From positions 1 through 25,645 of the forward strand of contig JANZKC010000006.1 in assembly GCA_025061115.1 (NCBI GenBank): 25,645 nucleotides of DNA, in the 5' to 3' direction. Under the pieces are notes generated by a model. The model ran no database searches and was not told the origin of the DNA. It was given only the letters and a program-made list of their open reading frames with translations. Below are positions 1 to 25,645 of this stretch, one piece after another; position 1 is the first letter of the stretch; each line of letters starts with the position of its first letter. The translations under genes and the position numbers were made by a program. This DNA comes from Candidatus Culexmicrobium cathedralense. GTDB taxonomy: Archaea; Thermoproteota; Methanomethylicia; Culexarchaeales; Culexmicrobiaceae.

Positions 1-261
1 TGTTTACGTTTACATGTGTAGTGTTGGGTTGGGTTTTGGGGTGGCTTAGCCTAAATCAGACTTACATATGTAATTTGATGAGTTTCAGACAGCAAAAACA
101 ACAAGCGGCAGTTAGAACACTAACAGATAACAATGACAAATTGCGAATTGAAAATTAAATGTTAATTATAATATGTATAATTTTTATGTTTATTGATCTA
201 TTGAATTTTTACAATTGTTTTTTGTGTATTTAAAAACCGTAAGTTTTCATGGTTGTTTTTG

Positions 262-277
262 CCATAAGGTTTATATA
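262..277 (+). promoter_or_regulatory. Conserved BRE+TATA promoter CCATAAGGTTTATATA
   Basis: Near-identical 16-mer also at 6752-6767 and 10001-10016, with variants at 9745, 7972 and 7293. Each lies upstream of an ORF start. Confidence 0.75.
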
Positions 278-326
278 CCCATATTGCCGAATATTACATG
301 AGTAAAAATTTCGGGGGGGTTGGGAG

Positions 327-926
327 TTGGAAGATGTGACAACTAAAAACGAATTTGAAGCCTGCGTAATAGCTTATGATCTTCCCAGCGAAAATCGCAT
401 AGTTATAAGGGATAAGCAAGTGTACAACAAAATAAGAACAACTAGAATACTGTCAACTTATAAACTTCATAGTCTAGGTATTTTGACAACTGAAAGTGTT
501 ATTCTAGTACCAAAGAGCAAGTTAAATGAAGTACAAAATGCAATAGATACAGTTTATAAGCTTTATAATGATTTGAACATTGAACTTGAAAAGAAATATA
601 ATCTTAGCGTTGGCGAGCCACTAATAAAAGTAATACCAATAACTAGAAAGCAACATGAAGACTTTAAGGCGCTGGCTCAAAGAAAAATAAAAGAAAGACT
701 TGACAAATTAATCAACAAATTAACTGAATTGCTCAACGAAATAGATGAGATAATAGAAAGCGAAAAAATAAGGCGAATAAAGAATAACATAAGAAAGCAA
801 AAAAGAGAAATTCAAAGAATTGAGCAATACTGTAAAGAGCTGGGCATTGATACAAATCACAAATTCGAGCTAATTAGTGAACTTTTCCAAGAAGTTTTTA
901 ACACATTAGAGGGTGAAAGTCTATGA
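327..926 (+). CDS. Hypothetical protein with N-terminal Cas2/PaaX-like (ferredoxin-fold) motif and C-terminal coiled coil
   Basis: VIAYDLP...R...LHSLGILTTESVILV resembles the Cas2/PaaX-central pattern YD...G..Q.SV. K/E/I/L heptads at the C-terminus. ATGA overlap with the next gene. Confidence 0.6.
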   Translation: MEDVTTKNEFEACVIAYDLPSENRIVIRDKQVYNKIRTTRILSTYKLHSLGILTTESVILVPKSKLNEVQNAIDTVYKLYNDLNIELEKKYNLSVGEPLIKVIPITRKQHEDFKALAQRKIKERLDKLINKLTELLNEIDEIIESEKIRRIKNNIRKQKREIQRIEQYCKELGIDTNHKFELISELFQEVFNTLEGESL

Positions 927-2374
927 ACATGAGAAATAAGCTATTAAAAATGCGAACATTACTAAGCAAAGTATTCCTACATGAACCATATTATCTAGAT
1001 GCAACACTAGCGTGCTTCGCAAGTAAAGCACACATATGCTTGCTAGGCTTTCGTGGCGGCGGAAAAACGCACCTAATGGAGTGCATACTTAAGACTATTG
1101 AGCCAAAAATTACATGCGTAGCTCAAGGATATTTATCCGCAGAAATAGAAGACATATTCGCAAGACCAGATATAAGCAAATTAACTCAAGGAATAGAAGA
1201 AGTAGTATTTAAGAAAATGGTAAAAGCTAGAGTAAAAGCTTTCGACGAAATCCAGCGTTTAGGAGTTGGAGCACTAAGCTCAATGTTCCGACTAATGACA
1301 ACTGGAACAATAATATACATGGATAAAGAAAGCGGCGTAAAGCCATTCTGGATAATTGCAACAGCAAATCCAACCGAATTAAGCAACGACACATTAAACA
1401 TAAGACTTCCAGAACCTCTGTGGGACAGATTTGACGCAGTACTATGGATACCAATAGCAAAACTAAAATACTTGAGAAAAATCAATGGGCAAATTGAACG
1501 ATTAAAAGAGGCTTTACCAACAATATGGAGCGAAAATGATCTACTACAGCTGTGGAGCGAAGTTGAAAGCATCAATGTACCTAAAGACATTGAGCTGATA
1601 ATAACTTTAATGTGCAGAATAATGGGTTATTGCAAGTATGCGCAAGACTTTGACGCAAGTTCACTAACTGAAGAACAAAAACGTGAGCTGTGCAGTAAGT
1701 GCTCAAGAAATTACACATGTAGTTTAATTGCAAGACCGCCAAGTGTTCGTGCAAAGATGAGCTTAATAAGGGTTGCAAAAGGCTTTGCATACTTAAGAGG
1801 TAGCAATCAAGTTGAGCTAATAGATGTTGAAAATGCTTTTCCAATTGTATTCTGGAAACGTGTTAAATTAATGGAAGATGAGCAAATAAGCAATAGACTT
1901 GAAGCACTAAAAGACTTGTTCGATAAGCTCAAAACTGAAATAATGGAAGTAAAAGAGGGAATACAACTAATCAATAAGCTTAAGCAACGATTTGATGAAG
2001 ACGATTATTATAGATTAAAAGGATTTGAAAATGCAAAAGGCTGGTTCACCGAAGTAGTAGAAGAATTAGAAGACTATTATAAAGAATTGCGAGACAAACT
2101 AATGAGCAAATTTGAAAAAGCAAATGAAGTAACTAAAGCAAAAATATACTTAATTGCAAAAAGCAAATTGCCTAAAGAATATGCTAATGAATTCTACTTT
2201 GACGCAAATGTCAAAGTTAAACTCAACACAAAAATGTTAGCAAAAATTGCAAAAATAGACAAAAACTTGTTCAAAATGTTAAAAGAACTATATGAGCAAG
2301 GCAATGAGCAAGTTACAATTTATGGTGAAGCCGCATTAATGTACTTAGCACTCATAGGTGGTGAAAGTCAATGA
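923..2374 (+). CDS. MoxR-family AAA+ ATPase
   Basis: Walker A GFRGGGKT, Walker B AFDEIQR, ATANP (sensor 1), LPEPLWDRF (Arg finger), PSVRA (sensor 2). Adjacent to a vWA gene. Confidence 0.9.
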   Translation: MNMRNKLLKMRTLLSKVFLHEPYYLDATLACFASKAHICLLGFRGGGKTHLMECILKTIEPKITCVAQGYLSAEIEDIFARPDISKLTQGIEEVVFKKMVKARVKAFDEIQRLGVGALSSMFRLMTTGTIIYMDKESGVKPFWIIATANPTELSNDTLNIRLPEPLWDRFDAVLWIPIAKLKYLRKINGQIERLKEALPTIWSENDLLQLWSEVESINVPKDIELIITLMCRIMGYCKYAQDFDASSLTEEQKRELCSKCSRNYTCSLIARPPSVRAKMSLIRVAKGFAYLRGSNQVELIDVENAFPIVFWKRVKLMEDEQISNRLEALKDLFDKLKTEIMEVKEGIQLINKLKQRFDEDDYYRLKGFENAKGWFTEVVEELEDYYKELRDKLMSKFEKANEVTKAKIYLIAKSKLPKEYANEFYFDANVKVKLNTKMLAKIAKIDKNLFKMLKELYEQGNEQVTIYGEAALMYLALIGGESQ

Positions 2375-3885: not shown

Positions 3886-4445
3886 TGCTTATGAAAACTT
3901 ACACATGTAGTGAAAAGACAATAGAGAAATTTCATAAAGTACTTGGAGAAGGAGCTGAACGAGGTGAGGTGCTATTAGTAAGCAATGATCGAGTTATTGG
4001 CTTAATGCTTAAGAAAGTAACACTAATCGACGGCGAACAAGCAAACTTGCACTTCAACAAATTCGACAAAGCAATATATGTAGCCACAGCTAAAGTAAAA
4101 ATATCTGAAATACCAGCTGATGAAAACATAAATGTGAAAGGCAAAGTATTCTACAGCAATTATATAAAGCAAGCATTAAGAGTAATTACAGATAGAAAAA
4201 ACAAAGATGCTGACATATGGCTTATAGTAGAGCCACATGCACTATTAGCACTAGGCAATGACAATGGCTTAATGCTAATAGCAGAAAGACAAGGCATCAA
4301 CAACACAATCGACTGGAAACAAATATTCAGAAATAGAAAAGAAATAAAACTAAATGCTGTCGTGGAAAACGTGATATCACACAATGTGAAAGTACCGCAA
4401 GAACTAATAGATAAGTGGCTTAATGAACTTGGAATATCAACTTAA
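3885..4445 (+). CDS. Hypothetical protein, possibly degenerate sliding-clamp-like fold
   Basis: Coupled (TAATG) to the vWA gene. FYSNYIKQALRVI...LIAER weakly recalls the PCNA C-terminal pattern. Confidence 0.6.
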   Translation: MLMKTYTCSEKTIEKFHKVLGEGAERGEVLLVSNDRVIGLMLKKVTLIDGEQANLHFNKFDKAIYVATAKVKISEIPADENINVKGKVFYSNYIKQALRVITDRKNKDADIWLIVEPHALLALGNDNGLMLIAERQGINNTIDWKQIFRNRKEIKLNAVVENVISHNVKVPQELIDKWLNELGIST

Positions 4446-4479
4446 AGCTCAACTTATTTTTATTGTGCTTTTGTCTTGC

Positions 4480-4558
4480 TTACACATGTAATTTTTTCTC
4501 AGCCGTTTCAACTCAAAATTTTTAGAGCAGAGACGTGAGCGAAAGTGATTTCCGATTA
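4480..4558. repeat. 79-bp intergenic direct repeat A, copy 1
   Basis: Matches 7213-7291 with 6 mismatches by manual alignment. Begins with TTACACATGTAA. Confidence 0.93.
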
Positions 4559-4577
4559 ATGCGTCGGAGCGAAAGTC

Positions 4578-4633: not shown

Positions 4634-4636
4634 GGG

Positions 4637-4849: not shown

Positions 4850-4867
4850 AAAACTTTTCTTATTTTT

Positions 4868-5350: not shown

Positions 5351-5393
5351 ATTTTTTCACCTGCAACTTTATAAGCAATTGTAAGCATAAGAT

Positions 5394-5449: not shown

Positions 5450-5460
5450 AGGTGGTTTAG

Positions 5461-6714: not shown

Positions 6715-6751
6715 TTTTTTTACATGTGTAATTTTTGTTTGGTAGTTTAAT

Positions 6752-7212: not shown

Positions 7213-7291
7213 TTACACATGTAAGTTTTTCTCAGCCGCTTCAACTCAAAATTTTTAGAGCAGAGACTTAAGCGAAAGTGATTTTTGATTA
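7213..7291. repeat. 79-bp intergenic direct repeat A, copy 2
   Basis: Matches 4480-4558, 2733 bp away. Confidence 0.93.
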
Positions 7292-7910: not shown

Positions 7911-8045
7911 GATCTATTCTATTAGGTTTTTTTGTTTATTTTGATTCTTTTTTACATGTGTAAGGTATATTGGAAAGGTTTAAATAACCATATGTATATG
8001 ATGTATATTGGTAGAATGTAGATGCACTAGGAGTGTTGTTGAATT

Positions 8046-8547: not shown

Positions 8548-8736
8548 GTGGCTGAGGTTCAGTGGGACGTTGTGCTTGCATGTGTAATAGTTGTTGCAGC
8601 TGCAGCGGGACTTATCGAAGGCAGCCTGACGGCTAAGGACTTCATCACCATTATAGGTATGGTTCTAAGCTTTCTGGCTGGAAAGAAAGTTGGGTATAAT
8701 TTGGCTATGAGGAAAATTAGGGGGAGCGAGGCGTGA
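8548..8736 (+). CDS. Small two-TM membrane protein (holin-like architecture)
   Basis: Two hydrophobic segments and a basic C-terminal tail. AGGTGA RBS. Confidence 0.65.
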   Translation: MAEVQWDVVLACVIVVAAAAGLIEGSLTAKDFITIIGMVLSFLAGKKVGYNLAMRKIRGSEA

Positions 8737-8944: not shown

Positions 8945-9757
8945 ATGCTAGCCATAGCGCCCAGATACGATGAAGCTACGGAGTACAGCTACAAGTGGAT
9001 TAAAAAACTCATGGAAGAGCTGGAAGCAGAATACACACCACTATTCGAGAGCGACGCTACTAGAGAGAACTTCGAAAAAGAAGTTGAAAACCACAGCATA
9101 GTTGTCTTCTACGATCACGGAGATGAAGTGGGGCTTTACGCTCAAGGCGGACGTACATATGTAATCGACAAGCGGAACAACCACCTACTCAAAGGCAAGA
9201 TAATCTACACGATGGCTTGCCTGTGGGGCATAGACGGTGGAATAGACACGTGGAAAAAAGGAGCAAAAGTAGTCTGGGCATATAAGGACGTGTTTGCATT
9301 CACAAACTACGACGAGGAGCTATTCATGGAATGCGCAAACTACGGCTTAATAATAGTCATTAAAGAAGGAGTTTCATGGGAGGAAGCGGTGGAAAAAGCC
9401 AAAAAGAAGTTCGACGAGGCAATTGAAAAGGCTGAAGACGGTTGGACTAAAATCTGGCTCAGACACGACAGAGATGCACTCGTATGCTACACCGAAAATA
9501 ATCCTCCAGAAACAAGCACATGCATGCTCAGGCAACTTGCAATAAAGCTGTTCGGAGCAAAGCGAGCGTGGAAACTGCGTAGAGCCAAAGTCTTCGCTTT
9601 AATGCTTACATGTGTAGGATACGGCATTGCACTTCACGACTTCGCCCATCAAGTTTGGGAGCTGAAGGGCACTTCCTTAAGCCTTGAAGGCGGATACATT
9701 GGATTCATAATGATGCTGGCAGGTCTTCTCCTACTATTTTTAGACCACAAGGTTTAA
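8945..9757 (+). CDS. Putative clan CD (caspase/gingipain/CHAT-like) cysteine peptidase with C-terminal TM helices
   Basis: IVVFYDHG and IIYTMAC: His-Gly and Ala-Cys, each after a hydrophobic strand, about 35 aa apart. Two C-terminal hydrophobic segments. Confidence 0.6.
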   Translation: MLAIAPRYDEATEYSYKWIKKLMEELEAEYTPLFESDATRENFEKEVENHSIVVFYDHGDEVGLYAQGGRTYVIDKRNNHLLKGKIIYTMACLWGIDGGIDTWKKGAKVVWAYKDVFAFTNYDEELFMECANYGLIIVIKEGVSWEEAVEKAKKKFDEAIEKAEDGWTKIWLRHDRDALVCYTENNPPETSTCMLRQLAIKLFGAKRAWKLRRAKVFALMLTCVGYGIALHDFAHQVWELKGTSLSLEGGYIGFIMMLAGLLLLFLDHKV

Positions 9758-9792
9758 ATATACTCTTAAACATGTATTGTATAGGTGATAAT

Positions 9793-9981
9793 ATGCCGAG
9801 CGGTGAAAAGAAGCCGAAAATGAAGCTGGTGCACCTATCAATACGTGAAGACCTATACGAAAAGCTCTGGCAGATAGTCAAGAAGAGGTTTGTAGTGCCG
9901 CTGAGGAAGTTCCACATAGTCGTTAATGAGGCGCTGGAAGAGTACATTGAGAAGAACAAGCACTTACTAGAGGATAATTAA
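9793..9981 (+). CDS. Ribbon-helix-helix DNA-binding protein
   Basis: KLVHLSIREDLYEKL...VVNEALEEYI RHH pattern. AGGTGA RBS before ATG 9793. Confidence 0.75.
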   Translation: MPSGEKKPKMKLVHLSIREDLYEKLWQIVKKRFVVPLRKFHIVVNEALEEYIEKNKHLLEDN

Positions 9982-11283: not shown

Positions 11284-11405
11284 AAATGAACATAAAGAAC
11301 CCATATGTGAGGGACGCAATATGGTTTCTAGCCTTCAGAGAGCGTAGAAAAACTACATGTGTAAAAGAGGAGAAAAAGGAAGGGTGCAGCAGTGATTGTA
11401 GTTAG
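11280..11405 (+). CDS. Possible 41-aa microprotein
   Basis: ATGA overlap with the upstream gene. Fills the gap in the operon. Confidence 0.35.
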   Translation: MKMNIKNPYVRDAIWFLAFRERRKTTCVKEEKKEGCSSDCS

Positions 11406-11865: not shown

Positions 11866-11901
11866 GCTGCGCTTCCGCTATTTACATATGTAATTTTTTT
11901 G
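11866..11901. terminator. Convergent intergenic region with TTACATATGTAA palindrome and T-tract
   Basis: Lies between the + and - strand operons. T7 run follows the palindrome. Confidence 0.5.
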
Positions 11902-12231
11902 CTACGCTCTTATCTGGATTCTGGGCTTGTAGCCGTGCTTCTTTCGGTAGTATTCTATTGAGAAGATCACTATGTCCTTCTTTTTGGGGCTGTAGCTTAA
12001 AACTATTTGTCCAGCATTGTGCAGTTCTGCTAGGATGTCTATTAGCAGTTTTCTTGGGGCTTTAAATTTCTTTTCCAGCTCTTTCAGGTAGAATTTGTCT
12101 CTCTTATGTTTTGCTAGCAGCTGGAAGTGCTCTAAGAGGTAGTCCAGCACTTCGTTTAGCAGCTTGTTCTTGTATATCCATAGGGTTAACTTGTAGTTTT
12201 TATCTTTCACCGCCAATTTCTCAGCCCCCAC
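11902..12231 (-). CDS. Winged-helix DNA-binding protein
   Basis: FYLKELEKKF...LLIDILAELHNAGQIVL wHTH pattern. Overlaps the end of the upstream wHTH gene. Confidence 0.65.
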   Translation of the reverse strand: MGAEKLAVKDKNYKLTLWIYKNKLLNEVLDYLLEHFQLLAKHKRDKFYLKELEKKFKAPRKLLIDILAELHNAGQIVLSYSPKKKDIVIFSIEYYRKKHGYKPRIQIRA

Positions 12232-12944
12232 CTGTTGATGAAGTGCTTTTTAAGCCCTATTTTCCACTTGCCAGTTACGTCTCTACATATGTAGATTACG
12301 CCTAGTTCACGCAGCCTCGCCAAGTCATTTTGCAGGCTTATCGAGTTGAAGCCGTATCTGACTGCCAGCTCTGTGGGGCTGTCCACGAGGATGAATGGCT
12401 GCCTAGTCTCCTTGAAGTGGTTAACTAATACTTCTACTACTTCTATTTGGTCAGCTGAGCAGTCATGCTCTTTGAGCCACACAACTGCATTGTGGAAGCT
12501 CCTTTGTGAATTTGATGTTTGTAAAGAATTAATTTTACATTTTCTCGTTTCTGTCATATTTCTGTCATATTTCTGACATATTTCTGTCACATTTCTGTCA
12601 TAATATAAATATATGATGTCTCTTATTTTATTATATTCAATGTAGTTTAATCTATTCTTAAAAATATAATCTATAATCTCTATTAATTCATGATTCAGAT
12701 AATATAATCCGTCATGGTAGAGCACTAAGCCGTACTTTCTCAATCTGTACAGTTGCCTGTAAACTGTCCTATACGGAATAGAAGTAGTAGTAGTAATAGC
12801 TGAGTATATCATGTTTAGGGTTTTAGGTTCGCCGAGAAGTATTTTCAGCAGTTCCACGCTTAATCCCCTTATTTTCTCCCACTGAACAGTAGTAGTAGTA
12901 GTAATAGGGGTGCTTACTTCAAGTGCTTTAAGCTTCAAGCTCAC
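12207..12944 (-). CDS. Double winged-helix protein, putative replication initiator or regulator
   Basis: N-terminal wHTH (RTVYRQLYRLRKYGLV) and C-terminal wHTH (SPTELA...LARLRELGVIY). The linker is encoded by tandem DNA repeats. Confidence 0.7.
   Translation of the reverse strand: MSLKLKALEVSTPITTTTTVQWEKIRGLSVELLKILLGEPKTLNMIYSAITTTTSIPYRTVYRQLYRLRKYGLVLYHDGLYYLNHELIEIIDYIFKNRLNYIEYNKIRDIIYLYYDRNVTEICQKYDRNMTETRKCKINSLQTSNSQRSFHNAVVWLKEHDCSADQIEVVEVLVNHFKETRQPFILVDSPTELAVRYGFNSISLQNDLARLRELGVIYICRDVTGKWKIGLKKHFINRWGLRNWR
12548..12602. repeat. 5 x 11-bp tandem repeat TTTCTGTCATA (iteron-like)
   Basis: Units start at 12548, 12559, 12570, 12581 and 12592, two with one mismatch. Very AT-rich tract at about 12603-12710. 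Confidence 0.92.
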
Positions 12945-13903: not shown

Positions 13904-13964
13904 CTATTTATATATTATCTCTCCACTTATATTTTTTGATTACACCTGTAAGAGGTGAAAATGA
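13904..13964. promoter_or_regulatory. Divergent promoter region of the capsid gene, with TACA box
   Basis: TTTATATA at 13907-13914, TTACACCTGTAA at 13940-13951, GAGGTGA RBS. Confidence 0.6.
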
Positions 13965-14339
13965 ATGCCTCTGTATAGGTCTGCCTTAGATATGTTTAAG
14001 AAATATCAAGCAAAGTACAATCCTACGGTAGTTAGCACTAGATTTGAGAATGTCCAGCAAATTGCATTGGACAGGGCTAATGCTGGATTAGGGATGATAG
14101 GGACTGTCAGAGACTTGATAAGACCAATCCTCGACTCTTACGGTGTTACTGGAGGTATCAGGGCAACCTATTTAGCGTTTGCAACTAAACTCGCTAAGCA
14201 CGCCCTTCGCCAGCAAGGTGACTCTGCAGTTAAGGTTGCCTCAGCCCTCAAGTCCTACTTCGTCAATGCATATGATTTAGATCCGTCCATCTGCGATGAA
14301 ATTATACAAGTAGTCACTGGCTGGGCTGTCGCCTATTAG
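13965..14339 (+). CDS. Major capsid protein, SIRV2/rudivirus type (Adnaviria fold)
   Basis: YQAKYNPTVVST, YGVTGGIRATYLAFATKL and LKSYFVNAYDLDP...IIQVVTG align by eye with my recollection of the rudivirus coat protein (WQAKF..NPTVAST, YGITGPNRAIYQGFGLKV, LKGYYISAFNANP...VVNIITG). Confidence 0.88.
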   Translation: MPLYRSALDMFKKYQAKYNPTVVSTRFENVQQIALDRANAGLGMIGTVRDLIRPILDSYGVTGGIRATYLAFATKLAKHALRQQGDSAVKVASALKSYFVNAYDLDPSICDEIIQVVTGWAVAY

Positions 14340-14475: not shown

Positions 14476-15540
14476 ATGGTTAAAGTAGAGTTTGGCGTTA
14501 TTTCAGGCTACGTTCCAAGCCTGCGGACGGTTGGAATGGACATTGCATATGCTCTTAACAAGCTTGGGCACTCAGCAAGGTATTACAGCTATCAAGTGCC
14601 GTACTATGATGCAAAGAAGCTCTTCAGCAAGGCAATAGTGTTCATTCCATTTGATCCGACGTACGTTGGCAACTGGTGCTTAATGGCAACTGAATACTGC
14701 AAGGCTAGGATACCAACAATCATGTACGTGACGGTTGAAGGCGTCCCAAAAAAGCGGTACATTAAAGACTGGATAGTCAGCGAATGCATGTACTATGCAG
14801 TGAGCGAATATGTAAAGGAAATGCTGGAGAAAGTTGGAGTTCCAGTAATTGACACAATATATCACGGAGTAAACTTTGACGACGTTAGAAAGGCTAAGGA
14901 AAACATTAGCTTTAAAAAGAAGCTCCTGCACTCAAAGGTGAATGCGAAAGTCATCTTCGGCACAGTTTCTTCCTCGCTTCCCCGCAAGGGATTAAAAATG
15001 CTTACACATGTAGCAAACTTAGTTGCAGAGGAAATTCCAGACGCAAAATTCTACGTCTTCACAAAGATTACGCCTGCAGGTCAAGTGCTGACTGGAAAGA
15101 ACATAATTGTAGATCAAAGATTTGGAAAGCTTACCCGTGATGAAGTTCTCAGCCTAATAGGCTCATTCGACTACTACTTATGTCCATCACATGCTGAGGG
15201 CTTCGGCTTGCCGCTGTTAGAGGCGAATGCAATGGGAGTGCCAGTAATCTGCGGGGAGTATAAGCCTTTGACGGAAATTACGTCGCCCAAATCAACGCTG
15301 TATGTGCCGATTTACGGAGTTGAAGAGAGGGATGACGGATACGGAATATTATTCACATATCACCTCTACAATGCAGATGACATGGCTGAGAAAGTCAAGG
15401 AAGCATATGAGATTTACATGAGTAATCAAGAAAAGTACCAGCAGATGTGCAGGGATGCAGAGGAGAACGCTAAGAAATTTGATATATTAAAGACATATAG
15501 CAAGTTTATTAGGTGCTTCAGCAGTGCCGATAGCCCCTAA
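14476..15540 (+). CDS. GT-B/GT4 glycosyltransferase
   Basis: IYHGV, RKG and EGFGLPLLEA motifs. Immediately after the MCP, as in rudiviruses. Confidence 0.92.
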   Translation: MVKVEFGVISGYVPSLRTVGMDIAYALNKLGHSARYYSYQVPYYDAKKLFSKAIVFIPFDPTYVGNWCLMATEYCKARIPTIMYVTVEGVPKKRYIKDWIVSECMYYAVSEYVKEMLEKVGVPVIDTIYHGVNFDDVRKAKENISFKKKLLHSKVNAKVIFGTVSSSLPRKGLKMLTHVANLVAEEIPDAKFYVFTKITPAGQVLTGKNIIVDQRFGKLTRDEVLSLIGSFDYYLCPSHAEGFGLPLLEANAMGVPVICGEYKPLTEITSPKSTLYVPIYGVEERDDGYGILFTYHLYNADDMAEKVKEAYEIYMSNQEKYQQMCRDAEENAKKFDILKTYSKFIRCFSSADSP

Positions 15541-16846: not shown

Positions 16847-17076
16847 CCCCTGCGCCAGTTCCAGAAGAGATGAGAGATGAATTAACTGCTTTAATGCAGG
16901 AGCTGCTCATGAAGTGCCATGAACTCTCCTTTGAATATTCAACTTTAGACTGCGAGCAGGTGATGGAATGCCCATTAGGGAAGAAGTGCAAGGAGCTATT
17001 CAAAACCGTGAAGAAACTCAACAATCTAGTTAGAAGCTTTGCAGCGCCGCCAGCGAAACCAACATATGTAAGGTAA
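16762..17076 (+). CDS. Small protein with Cys cluster
   Basis: CEQVMECPLGKKC. The 5' end overlaps the previous gene by 85 bp, so the start is uncertain. Confidence 0.6.
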   Translation: MATQFNPAKTSSRRKSKKVKAPTSPEQIAPAPVPEEMRDELTALMQELLMKCHELSFEYSTLDCEQVMECPLGKKCKELFKTVKKLNNLVRSFAAPPAKPTYVR

Positions 17077-17092: not shown

Positions 17093-17368
17093 ATGAGCAG
17101 CGTAAGTCTAATCATCCCCCCTTTTTCAGTTCAAGTTGACGACTGCACAGTTGAAGTTCTAGAAGTGAAAAAGCACGAGTTAATCTCAGGGGAAAAATTC
17201 TACTCAGTGGCAGTCAGATTCAACTATAAAGGCATAAAAAGCAAAATAGTCAACCTAACAGTCAAAGACGAAAAAGATTTGCAGAGAAAGCTGAAAATAG
17301 AAGTGTCAAAGATAAAATTTTTAGAAATGACTTATGGTATTAATTATGTGAAAGGTGTGCTTACATGA
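17093..17368 (+). CDS. Hypothetical protein
   Basis: 91 aa. ATGA overlap with the 1472-aa gene. Confidence 0.7.
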   Translation: MSSVSLIIPPFSVQVDDCTVEVLEVKKHELISGEKFYSVAVRFNYKGIKSKIVNLTVKDEKDLQRKLKIEVSKIKFLEMTYGINYVKGVLT

Positions 17369-20300
17369 GTAATCTGGAGCAGGAAGCCCTAATGCTCAAT
17401 CCAGAAGATATTGAGAAGCTAAGCAGAATACTGGCTGAAGCACTTGCCAATCAAATAGCTGAGCAGCCCGAAGCACTTCAAGCCATATTCTACCTTGAAT
17501 ATAGTGAAGTAGTTATCATCGATGTTGATGAGATTACACATGTAGTAAACCTAGACTTGATAGCTTCATCAACGCTTGGATTGCTCGATCCTTTGGGGCA
17601 ACTTCAAGACTGGTTCACAAACATTATAAATTCAATTGCCAGTTGGATTATTAGTGGAATTGAGACCTTCATAAATGACTATGTGCTTCCATTATTCGAT
17701 ACAGTTGCAAGCAGCATTTCATCATTCATAAGTGACTATGTGCTTCCAGCATTCGACAACCTGTTCACAAGTATATCCAGCTGGATAACTGAGTATGTTC
17801 TTCCAGCTATAACTGGAGTTTCAGAGGCAATATCGGACTTCATAACTAATAATGTTCTTCCAGCAATATCTGCGCTGGAGGCATTCCTTTCAGATTTGCT
17901 TTCTGGCACTGCGTTAAGCATCACTCAGACGCTTACAGGTGTAATTCACGGAATTTCAGTTGCAATTCAATCTGCAATTAGCGGGGCAGTCACTTCTATA
18001 ACTAGCATCGTTAACTCGATTTCCCAGTCAATAATGTCTGCAATATCAGGGGTGGTTGACGCAGTTTCATCAACTTTCCAGTCAATTATAAGTGCAATAT
18101 CAGGCGTGATTGACACTCTGTCAAGCATATTCAATTCAGTTGCGCAGTCAATAATGTCTGCAATAGGCGGAGCGATAAATGCAATTTCAGGCGTAATTTC
18201 GGGAATTGCAAACTCCATCATAGGTGCAATATCGTATATCGGTCAGAGCCTGTCAGGTCTATGGGACTTCCTAGTAAGCTCATTTCAAAACATGATTGGA
18301 ATGGTGAGCGCTGGATTCCAAGCAATATCTAATACCTTCATGGGATTCGTAAACTCAATACTTCAGCTTCCAGCACTGCTGTCAGAAACGTTCAGACCAA
18401 TAGGAGAGTGGATTTGGAGCGCACTGCCAGACTGGATCAAAACGCCAATAGAAAACATAGGTAAATTCTTCACAGAAGACTTAATAAACGCTGTAACCGC
18501 GTTTTCAGCAGGCTTACAAGAATTCATGTCAGATCCAGCAGGCTGGTTTAAAGCCAACATAGTTGAGCCAGCATTTGACTTTTTAAGCTTCTTAGGAGAA
18601 AAAGCGTCAAGCCTAATTAACTTCATAATTGATACGCTTAAAGGCGTGTGGAAAGCAGTTGAAAGTGCTTTCTCTGGCTTCATGAAATTTATAGCCAACG
18701 CTATTTCAGGCTTTCTTAAGGGCACATATGAGTCACTTGGGAAAGTTGGTGAAGGTTTTAGACCTATATTTGAAAGTGCATATAAACCAATACCAAAATC
18801 TACTGGTGAAAAAATTTCAGAGATATTCAAGCCGCTCTTTGAAAAAGCATTTAAAGACTTGGGTATTGGAACACCAGAATACCTTAAAATTGACTTTGTA
18901 ACTTCTCAGTTGGTTTGGCAATTTTCAATTGCAACAGCACTTGCATTTTCACCTTTCTGGGCGCAAATACCAATAAGATTAGTCTCATTCATACTGTATA
19001 ATGTAGGTCAATTCGTGCATGGATTGGAGCTTCCAATAAGAATTAACTTGACGCCGCTTGGAATAGGTGTGGATAAAACTTTTAATCTTGCAAAGGCAGT
19101 AGGAGCTTCTCTCAGCCACTTCTCAGCTGAGCTGAAGAAATGGGTTGATGAAGTTGGCAGAGGACTGGTTTATGGATTTTCTATATGGGCTACTCAGCCA
19201 ATTACGAAGTCATTAAACTACTTGATGAGAAACGTTATTCCAGTAGAGCTTCCACAGCTTAACGTTATTAGGGAGTTTACTAGACGTGCACTTGCACATG
19301 AAAATTATGGTGAAATTGTTAAGCTGGCATGGTACTACATGGCTCTATACGGGTACTCAGATTATGTTATAGATTTGTTCTTCAAGAAGGCGGAAGAGTA
19401 CTACATTGAAATAGAGGATAGATTCGGCAATAAGAGGATTGTTCCATTAGCATTAGTTTACAATTTGCCGTCCGCCTCAGATGTAGCCCGCATGATGGTT
19501 AGAGACATCATCATCAAAATTGAAGATTTTGAGAAGTTCTTCCTTGCAACTGGAATGCACCCACACATAGCGAAGCTATACTACTTGCTTCACTTCAGGT
19601 ATCCGTCGCCAGAAACATTGTGGAAGTTCACTATGAGGGGAGTAAGCGGATTACTGTGGGCTACAATATCCAGAGAAGAAGAAAAAGACATAGAGAGAGA
19701 TGTAAAGGCATCTGGCGGACACTATCCACTGCCGCCGTCAGCTCTAAATAAAATGGATGCATCTACATGTGGAAAACTGCTGGATGCATTTAAAAAATAC
19801 ATGAAGTGGCATGACTATGCAAGGTTCAGCTACATTCCAGACTTCCCTTCAGACAACCTAATATACATTGACACGTTAGCTGACATTCCAACTAAAATTG
19901 ACCAGAGATGGATGGTTAAGTGGGGCTTATATGAGCTTTTAAGTGAAAAAGGCGTTTCATATAAATCTCCAATCCAACACTTTGTTGCAAAGATAGTTGA
20001 AGATAATCCAGCTTCAGAAGTAAAGATGGATTTAACTAACTTTTCAAGGACACTTCAAGCAACGGGATTGCATCCATACTGGATTCCAGTAACCGCCGTA
20101 GCTGAAGCCATGAATGCACTGTCAGAAGAAAGAACTTATCTGAGGACTGGAGTCATAAATCTCTTCAAAGAAGGCTTCATTTCAAGGGATACTTTGAAGA
20201 GTGTGTTTGCTGGAGCCTTCAAAGTATCATTTAAAGTCGCCTACTTCGATGTAAGTGATTACACGTGGAAGACTGGATACGTTAACCTGCCAGTAATGTA

Positions 20301-21783
20301 CCTTCCAGCTGAGCGTGAATTATTGGCTTTGAGGGCAGACATGGATAGAGTTCTAGATATACTCAGGGAAATACAGAGAGATGTCAGTCAAGCATATCAA
20401 GAAGCAATAATTCCAGATTATGAGAAGTACAAGGAGAGGCTTACACAAGTAATTGAAAACATTAAAGATTTAGCTCCACCAAACGTTAAAATTGAATTTA
20501 TTGAGAAATACTATAAGCCATACGTTAAAGCACTTGAAATATACAGGGAAGTCTATACTGTTAGGAGAATACGCAGCTGGACTATGAGGTGGCTTGGCTG
20601 GATAATGTATCGTGTAGCAACTGGACTGGTAACTGAAAAGGAGCTTTCAAGCCTCGTTAATACATTAGCCTATTACTCAAAGCTAACTAAAACTGAATTG
20701 AAATTCTTCAGCGAAGTATTATCAGTTATGAGGGGAATTGCAGCTAGGGAGTACCTTCCAACTCCATCTCAGCTAGCCACTCTGTCAGAATACCTTGTCA
20801 TTTCAAGTGAGCTGATAGATACGTGCCTCAAAGTTAAAATGGTGCCAGACGAGTGGAAGCCCCTATGGAAGCAGTACATTAGAATTAGACCTGTTGCAGA
20901 TGACATTAAAAGCCTGCTGTCAACTTACCGTAGAGCACTTCTATATGTAACTATTCCAAAGGATATTGAAAAGCAGATAATGAACTATGCAAAGCTAATT
21001 AATTTTGGAAAAGAAGAGCTTGAAATACTAAACTTAAGAGTATCACTTGAAGAGCTAATTCAGAACAGCAGGGAATACATACCTACACCATACTCGCTAG
21101 CCACTCTCTGCGAATACCTGCCAGAAGCCAGAAAGTTCTTCAATCAAGTAATGGAAGCTAAGAGGGTTCCAAAGGAGTGGCGCCCGCTGTGGGCTAAGTA
21201 CATTGATATTAAACCGCTAGTAGATGACATTAAAAAGTACCTAAGTAGAGCTGAAAACCTGTACGCAAGATTCATGATTACAAAAGAAGCCTTTCAGGAA
21301 GTGCTCGACGAAGTAGCTGAGTACTTAGGCTACACTTCTAAAGAAATCGAATTTCTAATGAAGGTGACGGAGTTTGAGAGAGCTAGAAACGCATGGACAG
21401 AGCTTATAGGCACAGTTGAGAGGCTCGTATCTCTAAGCGAATACTCGCCGACAGCAACAAAATATGCGTTAGGTAAACTTAAAGCCATGATAAACTCGCT
21501 GCCGCTTCCAGACCAAGATAAGCAGGAGCTGTACAAGATGTGGGAGGAATACATTAGAAACAGACCAATCAAATCTGAAGCTAGAATGTACATTACCCAG
21601 CTAATAAACCTATACATAGATGACTTAATTACAACTGCAGACTTTGAAAGGGAGCTTCAGGGAATGAAGAAATGGGGGTTCTCAGACAATGAAATAATGT
21701 TTTACAAGGCTATAGCGGCACTTAGAAAAGCTAGAAAGCTGAGAATACCCATAACATATCCAGAGGAAGAGCAGGCAGGCTGA
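17365..21783 (+). CDS. Large virion structural protein (probable terminal fibre/end structure)
   Basis: 1472 aa with N-terminal amphipathic 19-aa and 18/22-aa repeats and C-terminal 108-aa repeats. Largest gene of the structural operon. Confidence 0.65.
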   Translation: MSNLEQEALMLNPEDIEKLSRILAEALANQIAEQPEALQAIFYLEYSEVVIIDVDEITHVVNLDLIASSTLGLLDPLGQLQDWFTNIINSIASWIISGIETFINDYVLPLFDTVASSISSFISDYVLPAFDNLFTSISSWITEYVLPAITGVSEAISDFITNNVLPAISALEAFLSDLLSGTALSITQTLTGVIHGISVAIQSAISGAVTSITSIVNSISQSIMSAISGVVDAVSSTFQSIISAISGVIDTLSSIFNSVAQSIMSAIGGAINAISGVISGIANSIIGAISYIGQSLSGLWDFLVSSFQNMIGMVSAGFQAISNTFMGFVNSILQLPALLSETFRPIGEWIWSALPDWIKTPIENIGKFFTEDLINAVTAFSAGLQEFMSDPAGWFKANIVEPAFDFLSFLGEKASSLINFIIDTLKGVWKAVESAFSGFMKFIANAISGFLKGTYESLGKVGEGFRPIFESAYKPIPKSTGEKISEIFKPLFEKAFKDLGIGTPEYLKIDFVTSQLVWQFSIATALAFSPFWAQIPIRLVSFILYNVGQFVHGLELPIRINLTPLGIGVDKTFNLAKAVGASLSHFSAELKKWVDEVGRGLVYGFSIWATQPITKSLNYLMRNVIPVELPQLNVIREFTRRALAHENYGEIVKLAWYYMALYGYSDYVIDLFFKKAEEYYIEIEDRFGNKRIVPLALVYNLPSASDVARMMVRDIIIKIEDFEKFFLATGMHPHIAKLYYLLHFRYPSPETLWKFTMRGVSGLLWATISREEEKDIERDVKASGGHYPLPPSALNKMDASTCGKLLDAFKKYMKWHDYARFSYIPDFPSDNLIYIDTLADIPTKIDQRWMVKWGLYELLSEKGVSYKSPIQHFVAKIVEDNPASEVKMDLTNFSRTLQATGLHPYWIPVTAVAEAMNALSEERTYLRTGVINLFKEGFISRDTLKSVFAGAFKVSFKVAYFDVSDYTWKTGYVNLPVMYLPAERELLALRADMDRVLDILREIQRDVSQAYQEAIIPDYEKYKERLTQVIENIKDLAPPNVKIEFIEKYYKPYVKALEIYREVYTVRRIRSWTMRWLGWIMYRVATGLVTEKELSSLVNTLAYYSKLTKTELKFFSEVLSVMRGIAAREYLPTPSQLATLSEYLVISSELIDTCLKVKMVPDEWKPLWKQYIRIRPVADDIKSLLSTYRRALLYVTIPKDIEKQIMNYAKLINFGKEELEILNLRVSLEELIQNSREYIPTPYSLATLCEYLPEARKFFNQVMEAKRVPKEWRPLWAKYIDIKPLVDDIKKYLSRAENLYARFMITKEAFQEVLDEVAEYLGYTSKEIEFLMKVTEFERARNAWTELIGTVERLVSLSEYSPTATKYALGKLKAMINSLPLPDQDKQELYKMWEEYIRNRPIKSEARMYITQLINLYIDDLITTADFERELQGMKKWGFSDNEIMFYKAIAALRKARKLRIPITYPEEEQAG

Positions 21784-21788: not shown

Positions 21789-22112
21789 ATGTCAAGGTGG
21801 GGGTTAGGGTATAAGTCAGTTGAGTTTCTAACACCTGAAGAGTGGAACTTAGTGATTGACGCACTGCAGGACTTGGATGAGAGGATAAAGTGCGGCTTAG
21901 CAGAATTCACAGGCGACGGCACAACCACTAGCTTCCAAATTGCACATGGAGTTGGAGCTACACCTACATGTGTAATTGTCGGGAAGGGTGCAGCGGATCT
22001 TCCAGACATAGATTACTGGACTGCCGATGAAACCAATATAACTGTGTTCTTTAAGTCTGCACCTGCATCTGGAGCTGAAGTTAAGATTTGGTGGGTTGCC
22101 TTGAAGTGGTAG
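21789..22112 (+). CDS. Small fibre/adhesin-like beta-domain protein
   Basis: GDGTTTSFQIAHGVGATP...NITVFF.SAP..G motif typical of viral fibre accessory domains. Confidence 0.6.
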   Translation: MSRWGLGYKSVEFLTPEEWNLVIDALQDLDERIKCGLAEFTGDGTTTSFQIAHGVGATPTCVIVGKGAADLPDIDYWTADETNITVFFKSAPASGAEVKIWWVALKW

Positions 22113-22119: not shown

Positions 22120-23157
22120 TTGAGGTACATCTTCTATGCATACCCGCTATTCAAGAAGGTCAGCTTCGCATTTATTGCTGAGAAGCACGTTAAGCAGCTT
22201 AGAAGGTATTTTAAAGTGGAGCTGATTGATGAAAACGCCATCCCTTTTCTGCACGGAATTTTTAAGCCATTCGTATTGCTGCAGCCATTCTTCTATCCAT
22301 TTCAGAATTATGAAAAAATTCTTAGCAGGCGGGTTTACAGGTGGCGTGGACTTATTGGCATTGACGTTGCAGATTCAAATAGGATTAGCAGATATGCGGT
22401 TAGACTAACTGAGTATGCTACTGCAATGATTGTCCCATCAAACTATTCTAGGAATGCTTACGTCCGCTCTGGTGTAAAAAAGCCAGTTTACGTCATTCCG
22501 CATGGAGTTGACTTAGAATACATAGATGCACCTAAAAGCCAGCCCAACAGCTTCAAAATACTGGACGACTTAAAGAAGAGCAGGAAACTGAAAATTCTAG
22601 TGAGCTTCATAGTGCACAGCGAATACAGAAAGGGGCTAGATCTTCTCTATGAAATTTATAATAGGCTTAGAAGAGAAAGAAAAGACGTTGCACTAGTAAT
22701 AAAGGACTTGCATGGAGTTAAATTAATTCTAGATAGTGAAATGCGGATTTACAATGGATGGCTGTCAGAGCAGGACAAAATGGAGCTATTCGACCTGTCA
22801 GACCTATACCTACTAACAAGCAGAGGCGGCGGCTTTGAACATCCAGCTCTAGAAGCAATAGCACGTGGAGTTCCAGCCATTGGAGCTGAAGGCGGGGCAT
22901 GGGAAGATTACATGTGTAATTGGATGCTTGTCCCATCAAAACCTAGTGGAGAAGTTCTGGCTGGAAATCCAATCCATATGGGTATAGGTGTTGAAATGCT
23001 GGTGGATAAGGCAGTCGATAGAGTTCATGACATTCTAAACAACCTAGATGAATATAAGGCTAAGACAAGGGAATATGCAAACACGGTGATTAAAGAGAAA
23101 TTCACATGGACAAGAGTAGGTTTATTATTGAAAAAAGTAGTTGAACGTCATATATAG
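22120..23157 (+). CDS. GT-B/GT4 glycosyltransferase
   Basis: VIPHGVD, RKGLD and SRGGGFEHPALEA motifs. Confidence 0.9.
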   Translation: MRYIFYAYPLFKKVSFAFIAEKHVKQLRRYFKVELIDENAIPFLHGIFKPFVLLQPFFYPFQNYEKILSRRVYRWRGLIGIDVADSNRISRYAVRLTEYATAMIVPSNYSRNAYVRSGVKKPVYVIPHGVDLEYIDAPKSQPNSFKILDDLKKSRKLKILVSFIVHSEYRKGLDLLYEIYNRLRRERKDVALVIKDLHGVKLILDSEMRIYNGWLSEQDKMELFDLSDLYLLTSRGGGFEHPALEAIARGVPAIGAEGGAWEDYMCNWMLVPSKPSGEVLAGNPIHMGIGVEMLVDKAVDRVHDILNNLDEYKAKTREYANTVIKEKFTWTRVGLLLKKVVERHI

Positions 23158-23809: not shown

Positions 23810-24655
23810 TTGTCTGAACAAATATATGTAAGTTGGGATAGGTTGAAATGGTTCAAGCATAATAGAGGAACGTGCCCTAGAGAGAAAAATGTTCTAAAAA
23901 CAATACTAAGCCTAACAAATAAAAACTCAATTTTTGTTGATATAGGCGCACACATAGGATTCTACACAGTCAGATTAGCATTAAAATGCAAGCATGTTCA
24001 TGCAATTGAACCTAACCCAGAAAGCGCCTATATTCTTAGAAGAAACATTGAACTCAACAACATAAAGAATGTTACCGTTCATCAATGTGCATGCGGAAGA
24101 ACACACTCCAAAGCAAAAATATATGTTGCCGATACATGCACCACGCTAATTCCTAGAACAGGCAGAAAAACAATTGAAGTTGACGTTAAACCATTAGATT
24201 CATTAGTAAACTACTGCGATGTCGTTAAAATCGATGTAGAAGGATTTGAGGAGGAAGTTCTACTGGGAGCTGAAAACCTAATTACACATGTAAAACCAAT
24301 ATGGGTAATTGAACATCACGATAAAGGCTTAGGCATTCAATACTATCCAGAAACAAAGGGTATGAGTGAAAGAATAAGAAAGATACTTTCAGACTATATT
24401 AAAATAACATTTGATGAAGGAAGGTCGGCGTATATTCATAAAGCAAAGATAAATCAAGTTCCAGAACATGCCTTAAGAAGACTAATTACATTAGGTGTTC
24501 ATCATCATGTTTTAACTAACATAATTGAGGGCAGAGCATGGTATCATGGCTTACCATATTCATGGTGGTATGGTTTAAGTTTACTTGACTTCATGGAAGA
24601 AGTATATGAGCATGTAATTGAAGAACCAGAATGGATCAAAATAGTTGACAAATAA
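23810..24655 (+). CDS. FkbM-family SAM-dependent methyltransferase
   Basis: FVDIGAHIG, AIEPNP and VKIDVEGFE motifs. Confidence 0.9.
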   Translation: MSEQIYVSWDRLKWFKHNRGTCPREKNVLKTILSLTNKNSIFVDIGAHIGFYTVRLALKCKHVHAIEPNPESAYILRRNIELNNIKNVTVHQCACGRTHSKAKIYVADTCTTLIPRTGRKTIEVDVKPLDSLVNYCDVVKIDVEGFEEEVLLGAENLITHVKPIWVIEHHDKGLGIQYYPETKGMSERIRKILSDYIKITFDEGRSAYIHKAKINQVPEHALRRLITLGVHHHVLTNIIEGRAWYHGLPYSWWYGLSLLDFMEEVYEHVIEEPEWIKIVDK

Positions 24656-24680
24656 GCATTGCTTAAGTGGTAAGGCTTGT

Positions 24681-25055
24681 TTAAAGTCTTGATTCAATTA
24701 ATTTTAGTGCTACGTCAACTGGCTTCATGGTGTCAATTAAATTGTTGTGGGCGCTTGGAGTTATGATGTCTCCACTCTTATAATCTATGAGCCACACTTG
24801 CCTCGTAACGGCGGTATTAATTAGATTTTCAACTTCGGGAATGACTTCACCAGTTTTCTCCTTATACATTTCATACAGCTTAGTTAATGCTTCAACCGCA
24901 TCTTTCACAAATTTATTGATGTAGTTTACATCCTCTTTTTGAACGGGATCTCCATCCTTCACAGTCCTCATTTTACTTAGTAAGTCTTCCATTTCAGCTA
25001 TTATCTCATCAAGAGTCCTCTCAGACATATTCAAGCACCAACAATATTTAAGCAA
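24681..25055 (-). CDS. Hypothetical helical, probably structural protein
   Basis: Two GD.h...hN motifs. Likely start is MSERTL at 25028. Confidence 0.65.
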   Translation of the reverse strand: MLKYCWCLNMSERTLDEIIAEMEDLLSKMRTVKDGDPVQKEDVNYINKFVKDAVEALTKLYEMYKEKTGEVIPEVENLINTAVTRQVWLIDYKSGDIITPSAHNNLIDTMKPVDVALKLIESRL

Positions 25056-25064
25056 GCTGATATA

Positions 25065-25645
25065 TCAACTATGTGATTCCAATATTTCCTTTATGCGTTT
25101 AATTGCGTTTAATAGGCAGTTGCATACTGCAACTTTCAAGTTATGGTCATCTGGAAGAATAATGTCATCCATGAATACCCTTCTAAGCTCATATCCGCAT
25201 ATGGTGAATGCCACTCTTAAAAGTCGGTCTAAAGCTGTTACTTCATCTCTAAGAGAATATCCAATTCCCTTAGAGGTTTCAATGTCATGAAACACTCTGT
25301 CAATCAAAGTTATAATAACCGTTCTATACGGGCTATCCCTAACCGTAACATATTCCCTTAAAATTTTAGCTAAATCCCATACTGCCCTTACATCAACAGC
25401 TTTAACTGCATCCGTGATTTCCTTACCTAAAAGCCGAGACGCATAAAAATCTCCGAAAACACTGTCTCTCAAGATTAGCGTAATTGAACTGCTGGTGAAG
25501 TCTATGCTTTTAACTACATCTAAAATTACATGTGTAATATTCTTTAAAACGTAATCTGAAGCAGTAATTGAATCTGCAAGATTTTTACCATATTCTTTAA
25601 GTATTTTATCTGCAGTTCTACTTGCATCATGCAATGTAACATGGA
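25065..25645 (-). CDS. 5'-truncated repetitive fibre-like protein
   Basis: The frame stays open to the window edge. Repeated h-x-D-x-h-x-x-x-D units (LADSITASD, ITDAVKAVD, LRDEVTALD). Confidence 0.65.
   Translation of the reverse strand, partial: HVTLHDASRTADKILKEYGKNLADSITASDYVLKNITHVILDVVKSIDFTSSSITLILRDSVFGDFYASRLLGKEITDAVKAVDVRAVWDLAKILREYVTVRDSPYRTVIITLIDRVFHDIETSKGIGYSLRDEVTALDRLLRVAFTICGYELRRVFMDDIILPDDHNLKVAVCNCLLNAIKRIKEILESHS

Follow-up and report, generated by a model that had tools for sequence, protein, structure and literature searches.

Background

Cluster A mycobacteriophages, with genomes of about 50 kb, carry 20-30 sites of one short word, the stoperators (PMC6550527). In the part of this source used here a few stoperators are described as promoter operators and most as blocking elongation away from promoters, the consensus differs by subcluster, and each site, 13-14 bp long and without dyad symmetry, binds a monomer and points in the direction of transcription (PMC6550527). 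Here we describe a short palindromic word, TACANNTGTA with its 12-bp form YTACAYRTGTAR, in the genome of an archaeal virus. The stretch of DNA that was analysed, called the window throughout, is the entire 25,645-nucleotide (nt) contig JANZKC010000006.1 (C6), one of the 25 contigs of the 1.98-Mb assembly GCA_025061115.1 filed under Candidatus Culexmicrobium cathedralense. Like the stoperators, which belong to an immunity repressor of the L5 gp71 type, the word is spread over the genome (26 copies in 39.9 kb), has copies at promoters that may serve as operators (at the capsid gene in 11 of 14 viruses), and comes in lineage variants, ACAGCTGT and ACACGTGT, in relatives. Unlike them, it is a perfect 12-bp palindrome without orientation (by our own count the centre is TG seven times and CA seven times within the regions transcribed from the + strand), belongs to an archaeal virus with TATA and B recognition element (BRE) promoters, lies mostly in coding sequence, and has candidates only for its repressor. 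Because stoperators are asymmetric, oriented and monomer-bound, we regard the word as stoperator-like in its working and not as a member of that family. The site set is best explained as belonging to an exchangeable, virus-encoded dimeric regulator.

In archaeal viruses, the ribbon-helix-helix (RHH) regulators SvtR and AvtR of rudiviruses and lipothrixviruses repress the promoters of structural genes. As far as the covered part of the source goes, they occupy high-affinity sites away from the promoter and TATA box and then spread to weaker promoter sites, with four sites for SvtR, eight for AvtR, and imperfect inverted repeats as consensus (PMC5569661). The virus described here is likewise an adnavirus with an RHH-like gene, although this is a weak match. 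It differs from these cases in having 26 near-perfect and mostly intragenic copies of another consensus, and in the lack of a consistent link to the RHH gene, whose own promoter contains a site in this virus only. Palindromic sites of dimeric global regulators are also known from IncP-1 plasmids (RK2), where KorA and KorB, the latter of the ParB family, act on about a dozen operators. These share with the word that palindromic sites are distributed across a mobile element, some at promoters and some distant, but the present element is an archaeal virus and not a bacterial plasmid, and the family scans revealed no ParB-like gene. The parS, matS and Noc-binding sites are short dimer-bound palindromes as well, clustered by chromosome region and used in segregation or division. 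The word resembles them as a short palindrome that marks a replicon, but its copies are scattered in a manner compatible with random placement and sister viruses manage without it. In contrast to restriction-modification targets, its copy number is not at or below chance. What is known of regulation, replication control and genome recognition in the filamentous archaeal viruses of Adnaviria comes from a few cultured Sulfolobales viruses. A description of such a word in adnaviruses was not found in the literature searched, supplements apart, as far as the covered parts of the papers (including PMC12934983 and PMC9894754) go, and the word is most likely a set of binding sites for a viral regulator that has no described counterpart in these viruses.

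A palindromic word enriched throughout a rudivirus-like genome

The final 127 nt of the window are identical to the first 127 nt of contig C7 (L092; 14,387 nt). At the other end of the window, the first 104 nt match the terminus of C7 in reverse complement, and C7 extends another 23 nt outward. Judged by these shared ends, the two contigs are two pieces of a single linear, rudivirus-like virus of ~39.9 kb whose inverted terminal repeats measure 127 nt or more. Because 127 is a common assembler k-mer size, which concerns both the overlap and the repeat, the real terminal repeat may be longer, and the true ends of the virus may be missing. The major capsid protein gene (13965..14339, + strand) matches Pfam Sulf_coat_C (E 2.4e-21), a family covering the coat proteins of rudiviruses and lipothrixviruses, and its product is 30-33% identical to Rudiviridae capsid proteins (best 40 of 42 matching records). 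The label adnavirus, given to the window in a preliminary description made from the letters alone, is therefore correct.

In the window TACANNTGTA occurs 21 times, while 100 dinucleotide-preserving shuffles gave 0.42 copies on average and at most 2 (0/100 reached 21), which is an enrichment of 50-fold or more. TACAYRTGTA, the form with a pyrimidine-purine centre, is present in 19 copies compared to a mean of 0.07 and a maximum of 1 in 200 first-order Markov simulations, and 12 one-mismatch copies compare to 2.66 expected (largest 8) in first-order Markov simulations. The palindromic word is the most enriched 10-mer of the virus (z ~57). The excess over chance and the about 20 copies of the preliminary description thus hold up: all of its 20 exact positions are correct, one more copy, TACAGGTGTA at 17934, had been overlooked, and its eight one-mismatch positions were all recovered together with two additional ones at 9767 and 20260. 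Its remark that most copies extend to a longer word also applies, as 22 of the 23 exact copies in the whole virus have a pyrimidine before and a purine after and fit YTACAYRTGTAR, a 12-bp dyad of perfect symmetry whose YR centre is free. Across 14 genomes, 123 intragenic sites are preceded by T in 55%, C in 28%, A in 15% and G in 0% of cases and followed by A in 66% and G in 26%. Beyond the 12 bp the flanks are unrelated for most copies. The whole ~39.9-kb virus contains 26 copies of TACANNTGTA and 22 of the 12-mer, C7 adding five exact copies (one in the overlap, two in the terminal repeat) and nine one-mismatch copies. Two copies are present in each inverted terminal repeat.

The remaining 23 contigs of the assembly (1.94 Mb) contain 18 copies of TACANNTGTA and two of TACAYRTGTA. 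The latter number is about the Markov expectation, meaning neither depletion nor enrichment, and both copies are located within open reading frames (ORFs). The 12-mer YTACAYRTGTAR has no copy in these co-binned cellular contigs, and there is therefore no visible cellular regulon. That the word marks the virus, as the preliminary description had proposed, agrees with this distribution, in which virus and co-binned contigs are far from equal abundance. A CRISPR spacer linking the virus to the cellular contigs was not found, a single 21-nt match being due to chance.

Selection on the DNA

It is the DNA sequence of the word, and not the encoded protein, that is under selection. When synonymous codons are shuffled with every protein and the codon usage of each gene preserved, 1.05 coding copies result on average (standard deviation 0.88, largest 4; 1000 shuffles), while 11 are seen. 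Given the proteins of the window, only 15 places could be turned into the word through synonymous codons, and the word is present at 11 of them. In addition, conserved residues have been replaced in ways that create sites: the site at 22909 encodes DYMCN where the family has DY[LM]P[DE], the site at 21965 encodes PTCVI instead of PT[VI]AL, and the site at 15003 encodes LTHVA where relatives have LA[EQK][AV]I. The coding sites are distributed over frame 0 (four sites) and frame 2 (eight sites), and frame 1 is empty, in our own reading because the purine after the word would create a TAA or TAG stop. The preliminary description had reached the same conclusion from copies in different reading frames, more than half of them in ORFs (12 of the 21 copies), and from the peptides YTCS, ITHV, LTCV and YMCN, all of which were found. 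The count of coding copies lies far above the codon-shuffle expectation; a count within it was what the description had named as speaking against its proposal.

Sites at orthologous positions are common only to the closest relatives. The density of sites is ~5-8 per 10 kb in most motif-bearing viruses while the places of the sites turn over. We propose that the copies are kept by selection on their number rather than on their place.

Distribution and variants among related viruses

Among 165 candidates, 158 capsid relatives were found at E 1e-5 or better. Seven loci of IMG/VR and the best 80 of 250 from metagenomes (87 in total) were taken, and the 55 of them that are non-duplicate and at least 6 kb long were analysed. 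As anticipated in the preliminary description, the word is not restricted to one genome: TACAYRTGTA is found at 3.4-11.8 per 10 kb in 13 relatives (L007, L010-L013, L015, L019, L021, L024, L063, L064, L073 and L091). A scan of 59 genomes for all 8-bp and 4+2+4 palindromes revealed a palindrome at p < 1e-6 in 20 of them, with TACAnnTGTA on top in 12; in L091 it shares the top with ACACGTGT. The latter has 12 copies in L091 and seven in L066 (0.08 expected), and ACAGCTGT has 19 copies in L036 (0.34 expected) and 23 in L040 (0.32 expected). Every strong palindrome has the core ACA-NN-TGT, and many relatives carry no such word. The cultured rudivirus ARV1 (Acidianus rod-shaped virus 1, L094) contains six copies of ACAGCTGT compared to 0.38 expected, at 5176, 12766, 14584, 15492, 16419 and 17288, all intragenic. 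Weaker cases are L008, L029, SMR1 and SIRV2 (L093). In SIRV2, TTAGCTAA has 11 copies (1.5 expected), ten of which are located between small terminal genes in the terminal regions 925-4920 and 32917-34526.

According to a rapidly computed maximum-likelihood tree based on the 440-aa protein (46 rows, SH-aLRT support), one clade with support 100 comprises the 12 viruses present with the YR-type word, L066 with its CG-type, and eight viruses without the word. Within this clade the states with and without the word are interleaved. The word therefore has a history of several gains or losses among viruses that have their core genes in common. For example, L073 with 16 copies is sister to L049 with three copies of TACANNTGTA, only one of which is TACAYRTGTA (support 100), and the group of L024, L064, L019 and L021 is sister to L006, L089, L026 and L005 (support 96). 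Since such sisters have the same core genes and differ in the word, an exchangeable regulatory or immunity module fits better than a core function.

L006 (at 11500) and L066 (at 6777) have a promoter frame in common, ATATAAGC.TTTG., which is directly followed by the enriched palindrome of the respective virus, GACTAGTC in L006 and ACACGTGT in L066. These two sequences give the impression of an operator exchange within a fixed promoter.

Placement of the sites and the capsid promoter

While 12 of the 21 copies in the window are located in ORFs, the other nine are found in the 7.4% of non-coding DNA. The intergenic copies are flanked by T-runs and precede AAGGTTTAAATA-type BRE/TATA elements by 12 to ~110 nt, and three imperfect copies (one-mismatch or off-centre), those at 295, 9767 and 13941, follow closely behind TATA boxes. 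Over 14 genomes the bias is weaker than in the window, with 30 of 154 sites being intergenic compared to 9.5% non-coding DNA (p 1.5e-4). Not more than 100 nt upstream of a start are 36 of 153 sites, while 14% would be expected for random places. In 14 of 15 genomes the distances from copy to copy are compatible with random scatter (P > 0.05; L036 0.03), and regular spacing or phasing of the copies was therefore rejected.

A single place is conserved, upstream of the capsid gene, the main late gene. Here 11 of 14 motif-bearing viruses have a site, exact or with one mismatch, 15-67 nt before the capsid start, where by our own arithmetic from the site density only ~1.5 of 14 viruses would have one by chance. 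The site is mostly found between the TATA box and the Shine-Dalgarno sequence. This is also its position in the window (TACACCTGTA, 13941..13950), where it is 15 nt before the ATG and 38 nt away from the divergent gene 13523-13903. Further recurrent sites are located upstream of the gene divergent from the capsid gene (five of seven viruses), upstream of the gene at 10521 (five of 12), and 20-23 nt upstream of the gene at 17093 (five of 12), which heads an operon with the gene for a 1472-aa protein.

Candidate binding proteins

The RHH-like small protein (9772..9981, + strand) has a weak PHROG match to an Arc-like repressor (E 0.0027, 18.6 bits) and no sequence match in Pfam or PDB; in our own reading of its sequence it would have the strand-helix-helix pattern. 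The preliminary description had suspected an RHH protein as binder, but promoters and the distribution of the beta-strand give no consistent link to the word. In 15 relatives no motif-like site is found downstream of the TATA box of the RHH gene, and L063 has a core ~35 nt upstream of the TATA box. Autoregulation by the RHH protein was rejected because the word is missing from the RHH promoters of relatives and the occurrence of the beta-strand does not follow that of the word.

V10521 (10521..11063, + strand), the gene whose presence agrees best with the motif, encodes a candidate binder of 180 aa without a family assignment. It is present in 12 of 13 motif-bearing loci and in nine of 41 others, but it marks the whole clade of the 440-aa protein tree and is also found in eight viruses without the word. 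Structure models (pLDDT 93.6 and 90.9) predict an alpha/beta domain. Foldseek gave no match at E <=0.001, the top match being RdgC with E 0.013 and TM 0.28-0.34. In VIA-align a helical hairpin dominates the result for the full model, and for the short form the best matches, CENP-N-like and TBP-like alpha/beta domains, reach Z <=6.5 over 105 residues, which does not exceed background. A profile search of PDB sequences returned no match and the protein atlas no usable one, and a relationship to SIRV2 Rep was rejected (hhalign against ORF119c, probability 0.3%). V10521 has an invariant C-terminal tyrosine, and the homologues in L011, L007, L005 and L032 have an extra N-terminal Cys/His zinc-ribbon of ~40 residues (C-x2-C … H … C-x2-C-H-x3-H), which we read as an HNH-like candidate.

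Two candidate winged-helix genes (11902..12944, - strand; 11902-12231 and 12207-12944, the latter with weak TrmB/HTH_23 matches) are found in the closest relatives only. A DUF5131 radical-SAM gene is located at 7313-7987 of C7 (Pfam E 2.2e-29; TIGR04471 65 bits, below its cut-off of 355). DUF5131 is present in six of 14 motif-bearing genome pieces, which span several sub-lineages, and in none of 42 others; its absences are weak because all pieces are partial genomes. In five of the six pieces the gene is 0-3 genes away from V10521. A whole-record search returned no DUF5131 match in the record of one relative. No ParB family was found among the Pfam matches of 46 window ORFs or the NCBIfam matches of 19 C7 ORFs, and no terminase-like or SMC-like genes either in these scans, outside of which some small ORFs remain. 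Methyltransferase matches in the scanned ORFs are of the FkbM type only (Pfam E 1.8e-19), which is not a known DNA methyltransferase family.

What the word may be for

At a probability of roughly 0.4, our preferred reading is that the YTACAYRTGTAR copies are the multi-site operators of a dimeric virus regulator that works like the stoperator system but on palindromic sites. The protein that binds the word, its dimeric state, its viral origin and its effect on transcription are what we infer here, the dimer from the perfect dyad symmetry. In detail, a sequence-specific protein acting as a symmetric dimer, probably virus-encoded, would recognise YTACAYRTGTAR and serve as a global regulator. At the capsid promoter and a few other promoters its binding would hinder TBP, TFB or RNA polymerase. 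The ~20 further, mostly intragenic copies could stop elongating polymerase in the manner of stoperators or soak up the regulator. The preliminary description had offered a parS/matS-like organiser, a packaging or coat nucleation signal, a protective self-mark, a recombination core and a global repressor as possible functions. The conserved capsid-promoter copy and the repeated gain and loss of the word favour the regulator among these five and count against an indispensable packaging or segregation signal.

Several observations weigh against this reading. Most sites are not at promoters: 124 of the 154 sites in 14 genomes are within genes, and about three quarters of the exact sites are more than 100 nt away from any start. 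L010, L024 and L073 have no site upstream of the capsid gene, and in L012 and L013 the capsid-promoter site is found just upstream of the TATA box, while it is downstream in the others. The right-hand 14 kb of the virus (C7) contain just two internal exact sites. Only candidates are at hand for the binding protein; the RHH-like gene has the word in its own promoter in this virus only, and a near-identical RHH beta-strand (K-x-V-H-x-x-I) is present in L032 and L048, which both lack the word. The virus is tied to the cellular contigs by binning only, and the relatives were binned with diverse metagenome-assembled genomes (Archaeoglobales, Thermoprotei, Desulfurococcales, Aenigmatarchaeota and others). 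Therefore, the absence of the word from the co-binned contigs does not show its absence from the true host.

Alternatively, the word could be a self-mark for a process other than transcription, on whose copies a viral protein nucleates and thereby tells viral from cellular DNA, be it for capsid coating, compaction, episome segregation, initiation of replication at multiple places or protection during the degradation of host DNA. This would agree with 22 copies of the 12-mer in 39.9 kb compared to none in 1.94 Mb, with the two copies per inverted terminal repeat, with a placement compatible with random scatter, with mostly intragenic copies whose places turn over while their density holds, and with the six ACAGCTGT copies of ARV1, all of which are intragenic. 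However, sisters with the same capsid protein and core genes do without the word (L049 compared to L073, and L005, L006 and L026 compared to the L024 group), and an indispensable packaging or replication signal is therefore unlikely. Such a mark would also have to operate without a ParB, terminase-like or SMC-like gene among the scanned ORFs and with few copies in one genome half, and the conserved capsid-promoter copy would require a second explanation. We regard the self-mark as conceivable but unlikely. Self-marking could also be combined with a copy-number timer and a packaging mark in one viral protein. Replication would then multiply the high-affinity copies and draw the protein off the weaker copy at the capsid promoter, so that capsid synthesis would start only after many genomes have been made, with coating directed to those that carry the mark; a change of the word centre would make the module exchangeable between viruses. 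This combination seems improbable to us. The word may also be the target of a viral DNA enzyme, either DUF5131 modifying a base or V10521 nicking or cutting, which we consider rather unlikely. DUF5131 is a radical-SAM subgroup in a megacluster that also holds spore photoproduct lyase, according to the part of the source covered (PMC9477430), and its restriction to six of 14 motif-bearing pieces of several sub-lineages (0/42 others), mostly near V10521, would fit such a role. The same is true for V10521 with its presence in 12 of 13 motif-bearing loci compared to nine of 41, its invariant C-terminal tyrosine and the candidate HNH-like ribbon of four relatives. Yet these correlations are confounded by descent, because all motif-bearing viruses and all V10521 genes belong to one clade, and eight motif-bearing pieces, though partial genomes, have no DUF5131. 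V10521 is found in eight viruses without the word, is unlike SIRV2 Rep and has no clear known fold. Targets of modification or restriction are normally not enriched 50-fold or more and are usually avoided, whereas the word is strongly enriched. A dyad of 12 bp is also long for such enzymes, and cutting at the palindrome would break the genome.

The word might instead recruit or soak up a DNA-binding protein of the host, such as a transcription factor, a chromatin protein or a topoisomerase, as an adaptation to particular hosts. Sister viruses would be expected to differ in the word if it tracked the host range, and no viral protein correlates perfectly with it. EarA, the euryarchaeal archaellum regulator, reportedly binds TACATA, which is half of TACATATGTA. 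If the co-binned contigs represent the host, an assignment that is unproven, the host's own DNA would offer such a protein no 12-mer site, and the lineage-specific variants of the centre fit a co-evolving viral protein more simply. A host factor is thus quite improbable. A functionless by-product of peptide repeats, codon usage, mutation bias, small duplications or assembly error is hardly credible and already fails the tests that were run. Only the intergenic copies at 4481 and 7214, which lie in longer duplicated segments, would suit it, while the codon shuffles (1.05 compared to 11 seen), the sites in two reading frames and in non-coding DNA with mostly unrelated flanks, the enrichment in 13 independently assembled relatives and the amino-acid changes that create sites at conserved positions all oppose it.

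For the regulators described in archaeal viruses, the part of the source covered gives 4 to 8 sites (PMC5569661), compared to ~26 here. An uncultivated clade from hydrothermal vents has a strong and simple cis-element that is selected even at the cost of amino-acid changes. L073 and L049 form a natural comparison pair, and ARV1 with its six intragenic ACAGCTGT copies is a possible cultured model. If the multi-site repressor is true, the principle of the stoperators would hold beyond mycobacteriophages, with archaeal viruses using a palindromic version of it. If the word were instead a self-mark for coating or protection, it would explain how these viruses pick their own DNA.

Individual sites and further features of the genome

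The first two exact sites, TACATGTGTA at 11..20 and TACATATGTA at 63..72, belong to the inverted terminal repeat. The one-mismatch copy TACATGAGTA (295..304) is located ~18 nt downstream of the BRE/TATA of the gene at 327-926. Within the AAA+ ATPase gene (923-2374) there is a one-mismatch copy at 1111..1120 and an exact one at 1712..1721, and the next exact copy (3900..3909) lies at a gene junction, 15 nt into ORF 3885-4445. Four exact copies are intergenic: 4481..4490 and 6721..6730, both flanked by T-runs, 7214..7223, and 7953..7962. The last three are upstream of the BRE/TATA elements of the genes at 6811, 7323 and 8046, respectively, at a distance of ~12 nt in the last case. Duplicated intergenic segments of ~45-50 nt form the pairs 4491-4540 / 7224-7275 and 4590-4640 / 5385-5435; one pair begins directly after the palindrome (…TTTTTCTCAGCCG.TTCAACTCAAAATTTTTAGAGCAGAGAC) and the other includes TTATAAGCAACTTTTG.CATAA. 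A joint of 72 to 6742 in contigs of the sequencing runs has 27 letters on its shorter side and was rejected as a repeat effect. A one-mismatch copy at 8577..8586 is followed by two exact copies within ORF 8945-9757, at 9154..9163, where L015 has a site too, and at 9607..9616. The RHH-like gene has a one-mismatch copy (9767..9776) closely behind its TATA box.

The exact copy at 11354..11363 is located 29 nt upstream of ORF 11392-11865, a candidate Holliday-junction-resolvase-like gene, and that at 11883..11892 is intergenic with convergent genes on either side. The exact site 12284..12293 lies at the end of gene 12207-12944 (- strand), 53 nt upstream of gene 11902-12231 (- strand), and is conserved in L012. 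In one glycosyltransferase gene the exact site 15003..15012 is found in this virus only, and the second glycosyltransferase gene contains the exact site 22909..22918. One-mismatch copies are present at 15415..15424, at 17061..17070, 23 nt upstream of gene 17093-17368 (the recurrent place mentioned above), and, at the start of the 1472-aa gene, at 17362..17371. This gene also contains the exact site 17535..17544, common to L012 and L013, and TACAGGTGTA (17934..17943). Three more one-mismatch copies were found at 19764..19773, 20260..20269 and 20442..20451. The exact site 21965..21974 in ORF 21789-22112 is common to L012, L013 and L091, and the exact site 24283..24292 in the FkbM-type methyltransferase gene is common to L010 and L012. 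The last exact site (25527..25536) lies in ORF 25065-25634 (- strand) within the 127-nt overlap with C7. The oligonucleotide sequence TTACATGTGTAA represents the word as a site-bearing probe. Other words enriched in the whole virus are GCTGGAAG/CTTCCAGC (13 copies, 1.3 expected) and TGAAGT/ACTTCA (84 copies, 30 expected).

By Pfam the window genes further include, as just mentioned in part, two glycosyltransferases, an FkbM-type methyltransferase, the 1472-aa protein and a MoxR-like AAA+/VWA pair. The latter occupies 923-3885, where the gene of a MoxR-like AAA+ ATPase (AAA_5 and AAA_lid_2) precedes that of a protein with a weak VWA (CoxE-like) match; the second gene has a match in one relative only (L011). 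A near-identity search of a phage collection with the window gave no match, and a single-protein scan of IMG/VR returned no locus. The virus is present in 14 runs labelled hydrothermal vent or sediment metagenome. L096 and L106, which are one motif-bearing contig of 16.3 kb, contain two capsid-like genes with 72% and 54% identity to the query; Ahmunviridae, too, are reported to have a pair of capsid genes in the part of the source covered. In addition, C7 encodes in its region 3893-5845 a radical-SAM/SPASM peptide maturase, for which the best NCBIfam model is the PapB-type ranthipeptide maturase (E 1.3e-61, below cut-off). It adjoins two ORFs of Cys-rich CxxC-type repeats, and by sequence the three genes look like a cassette of the kind that makes ribosomally synthesised and post-translationally modified peptides (RiPP-like) within an archaeal virus.

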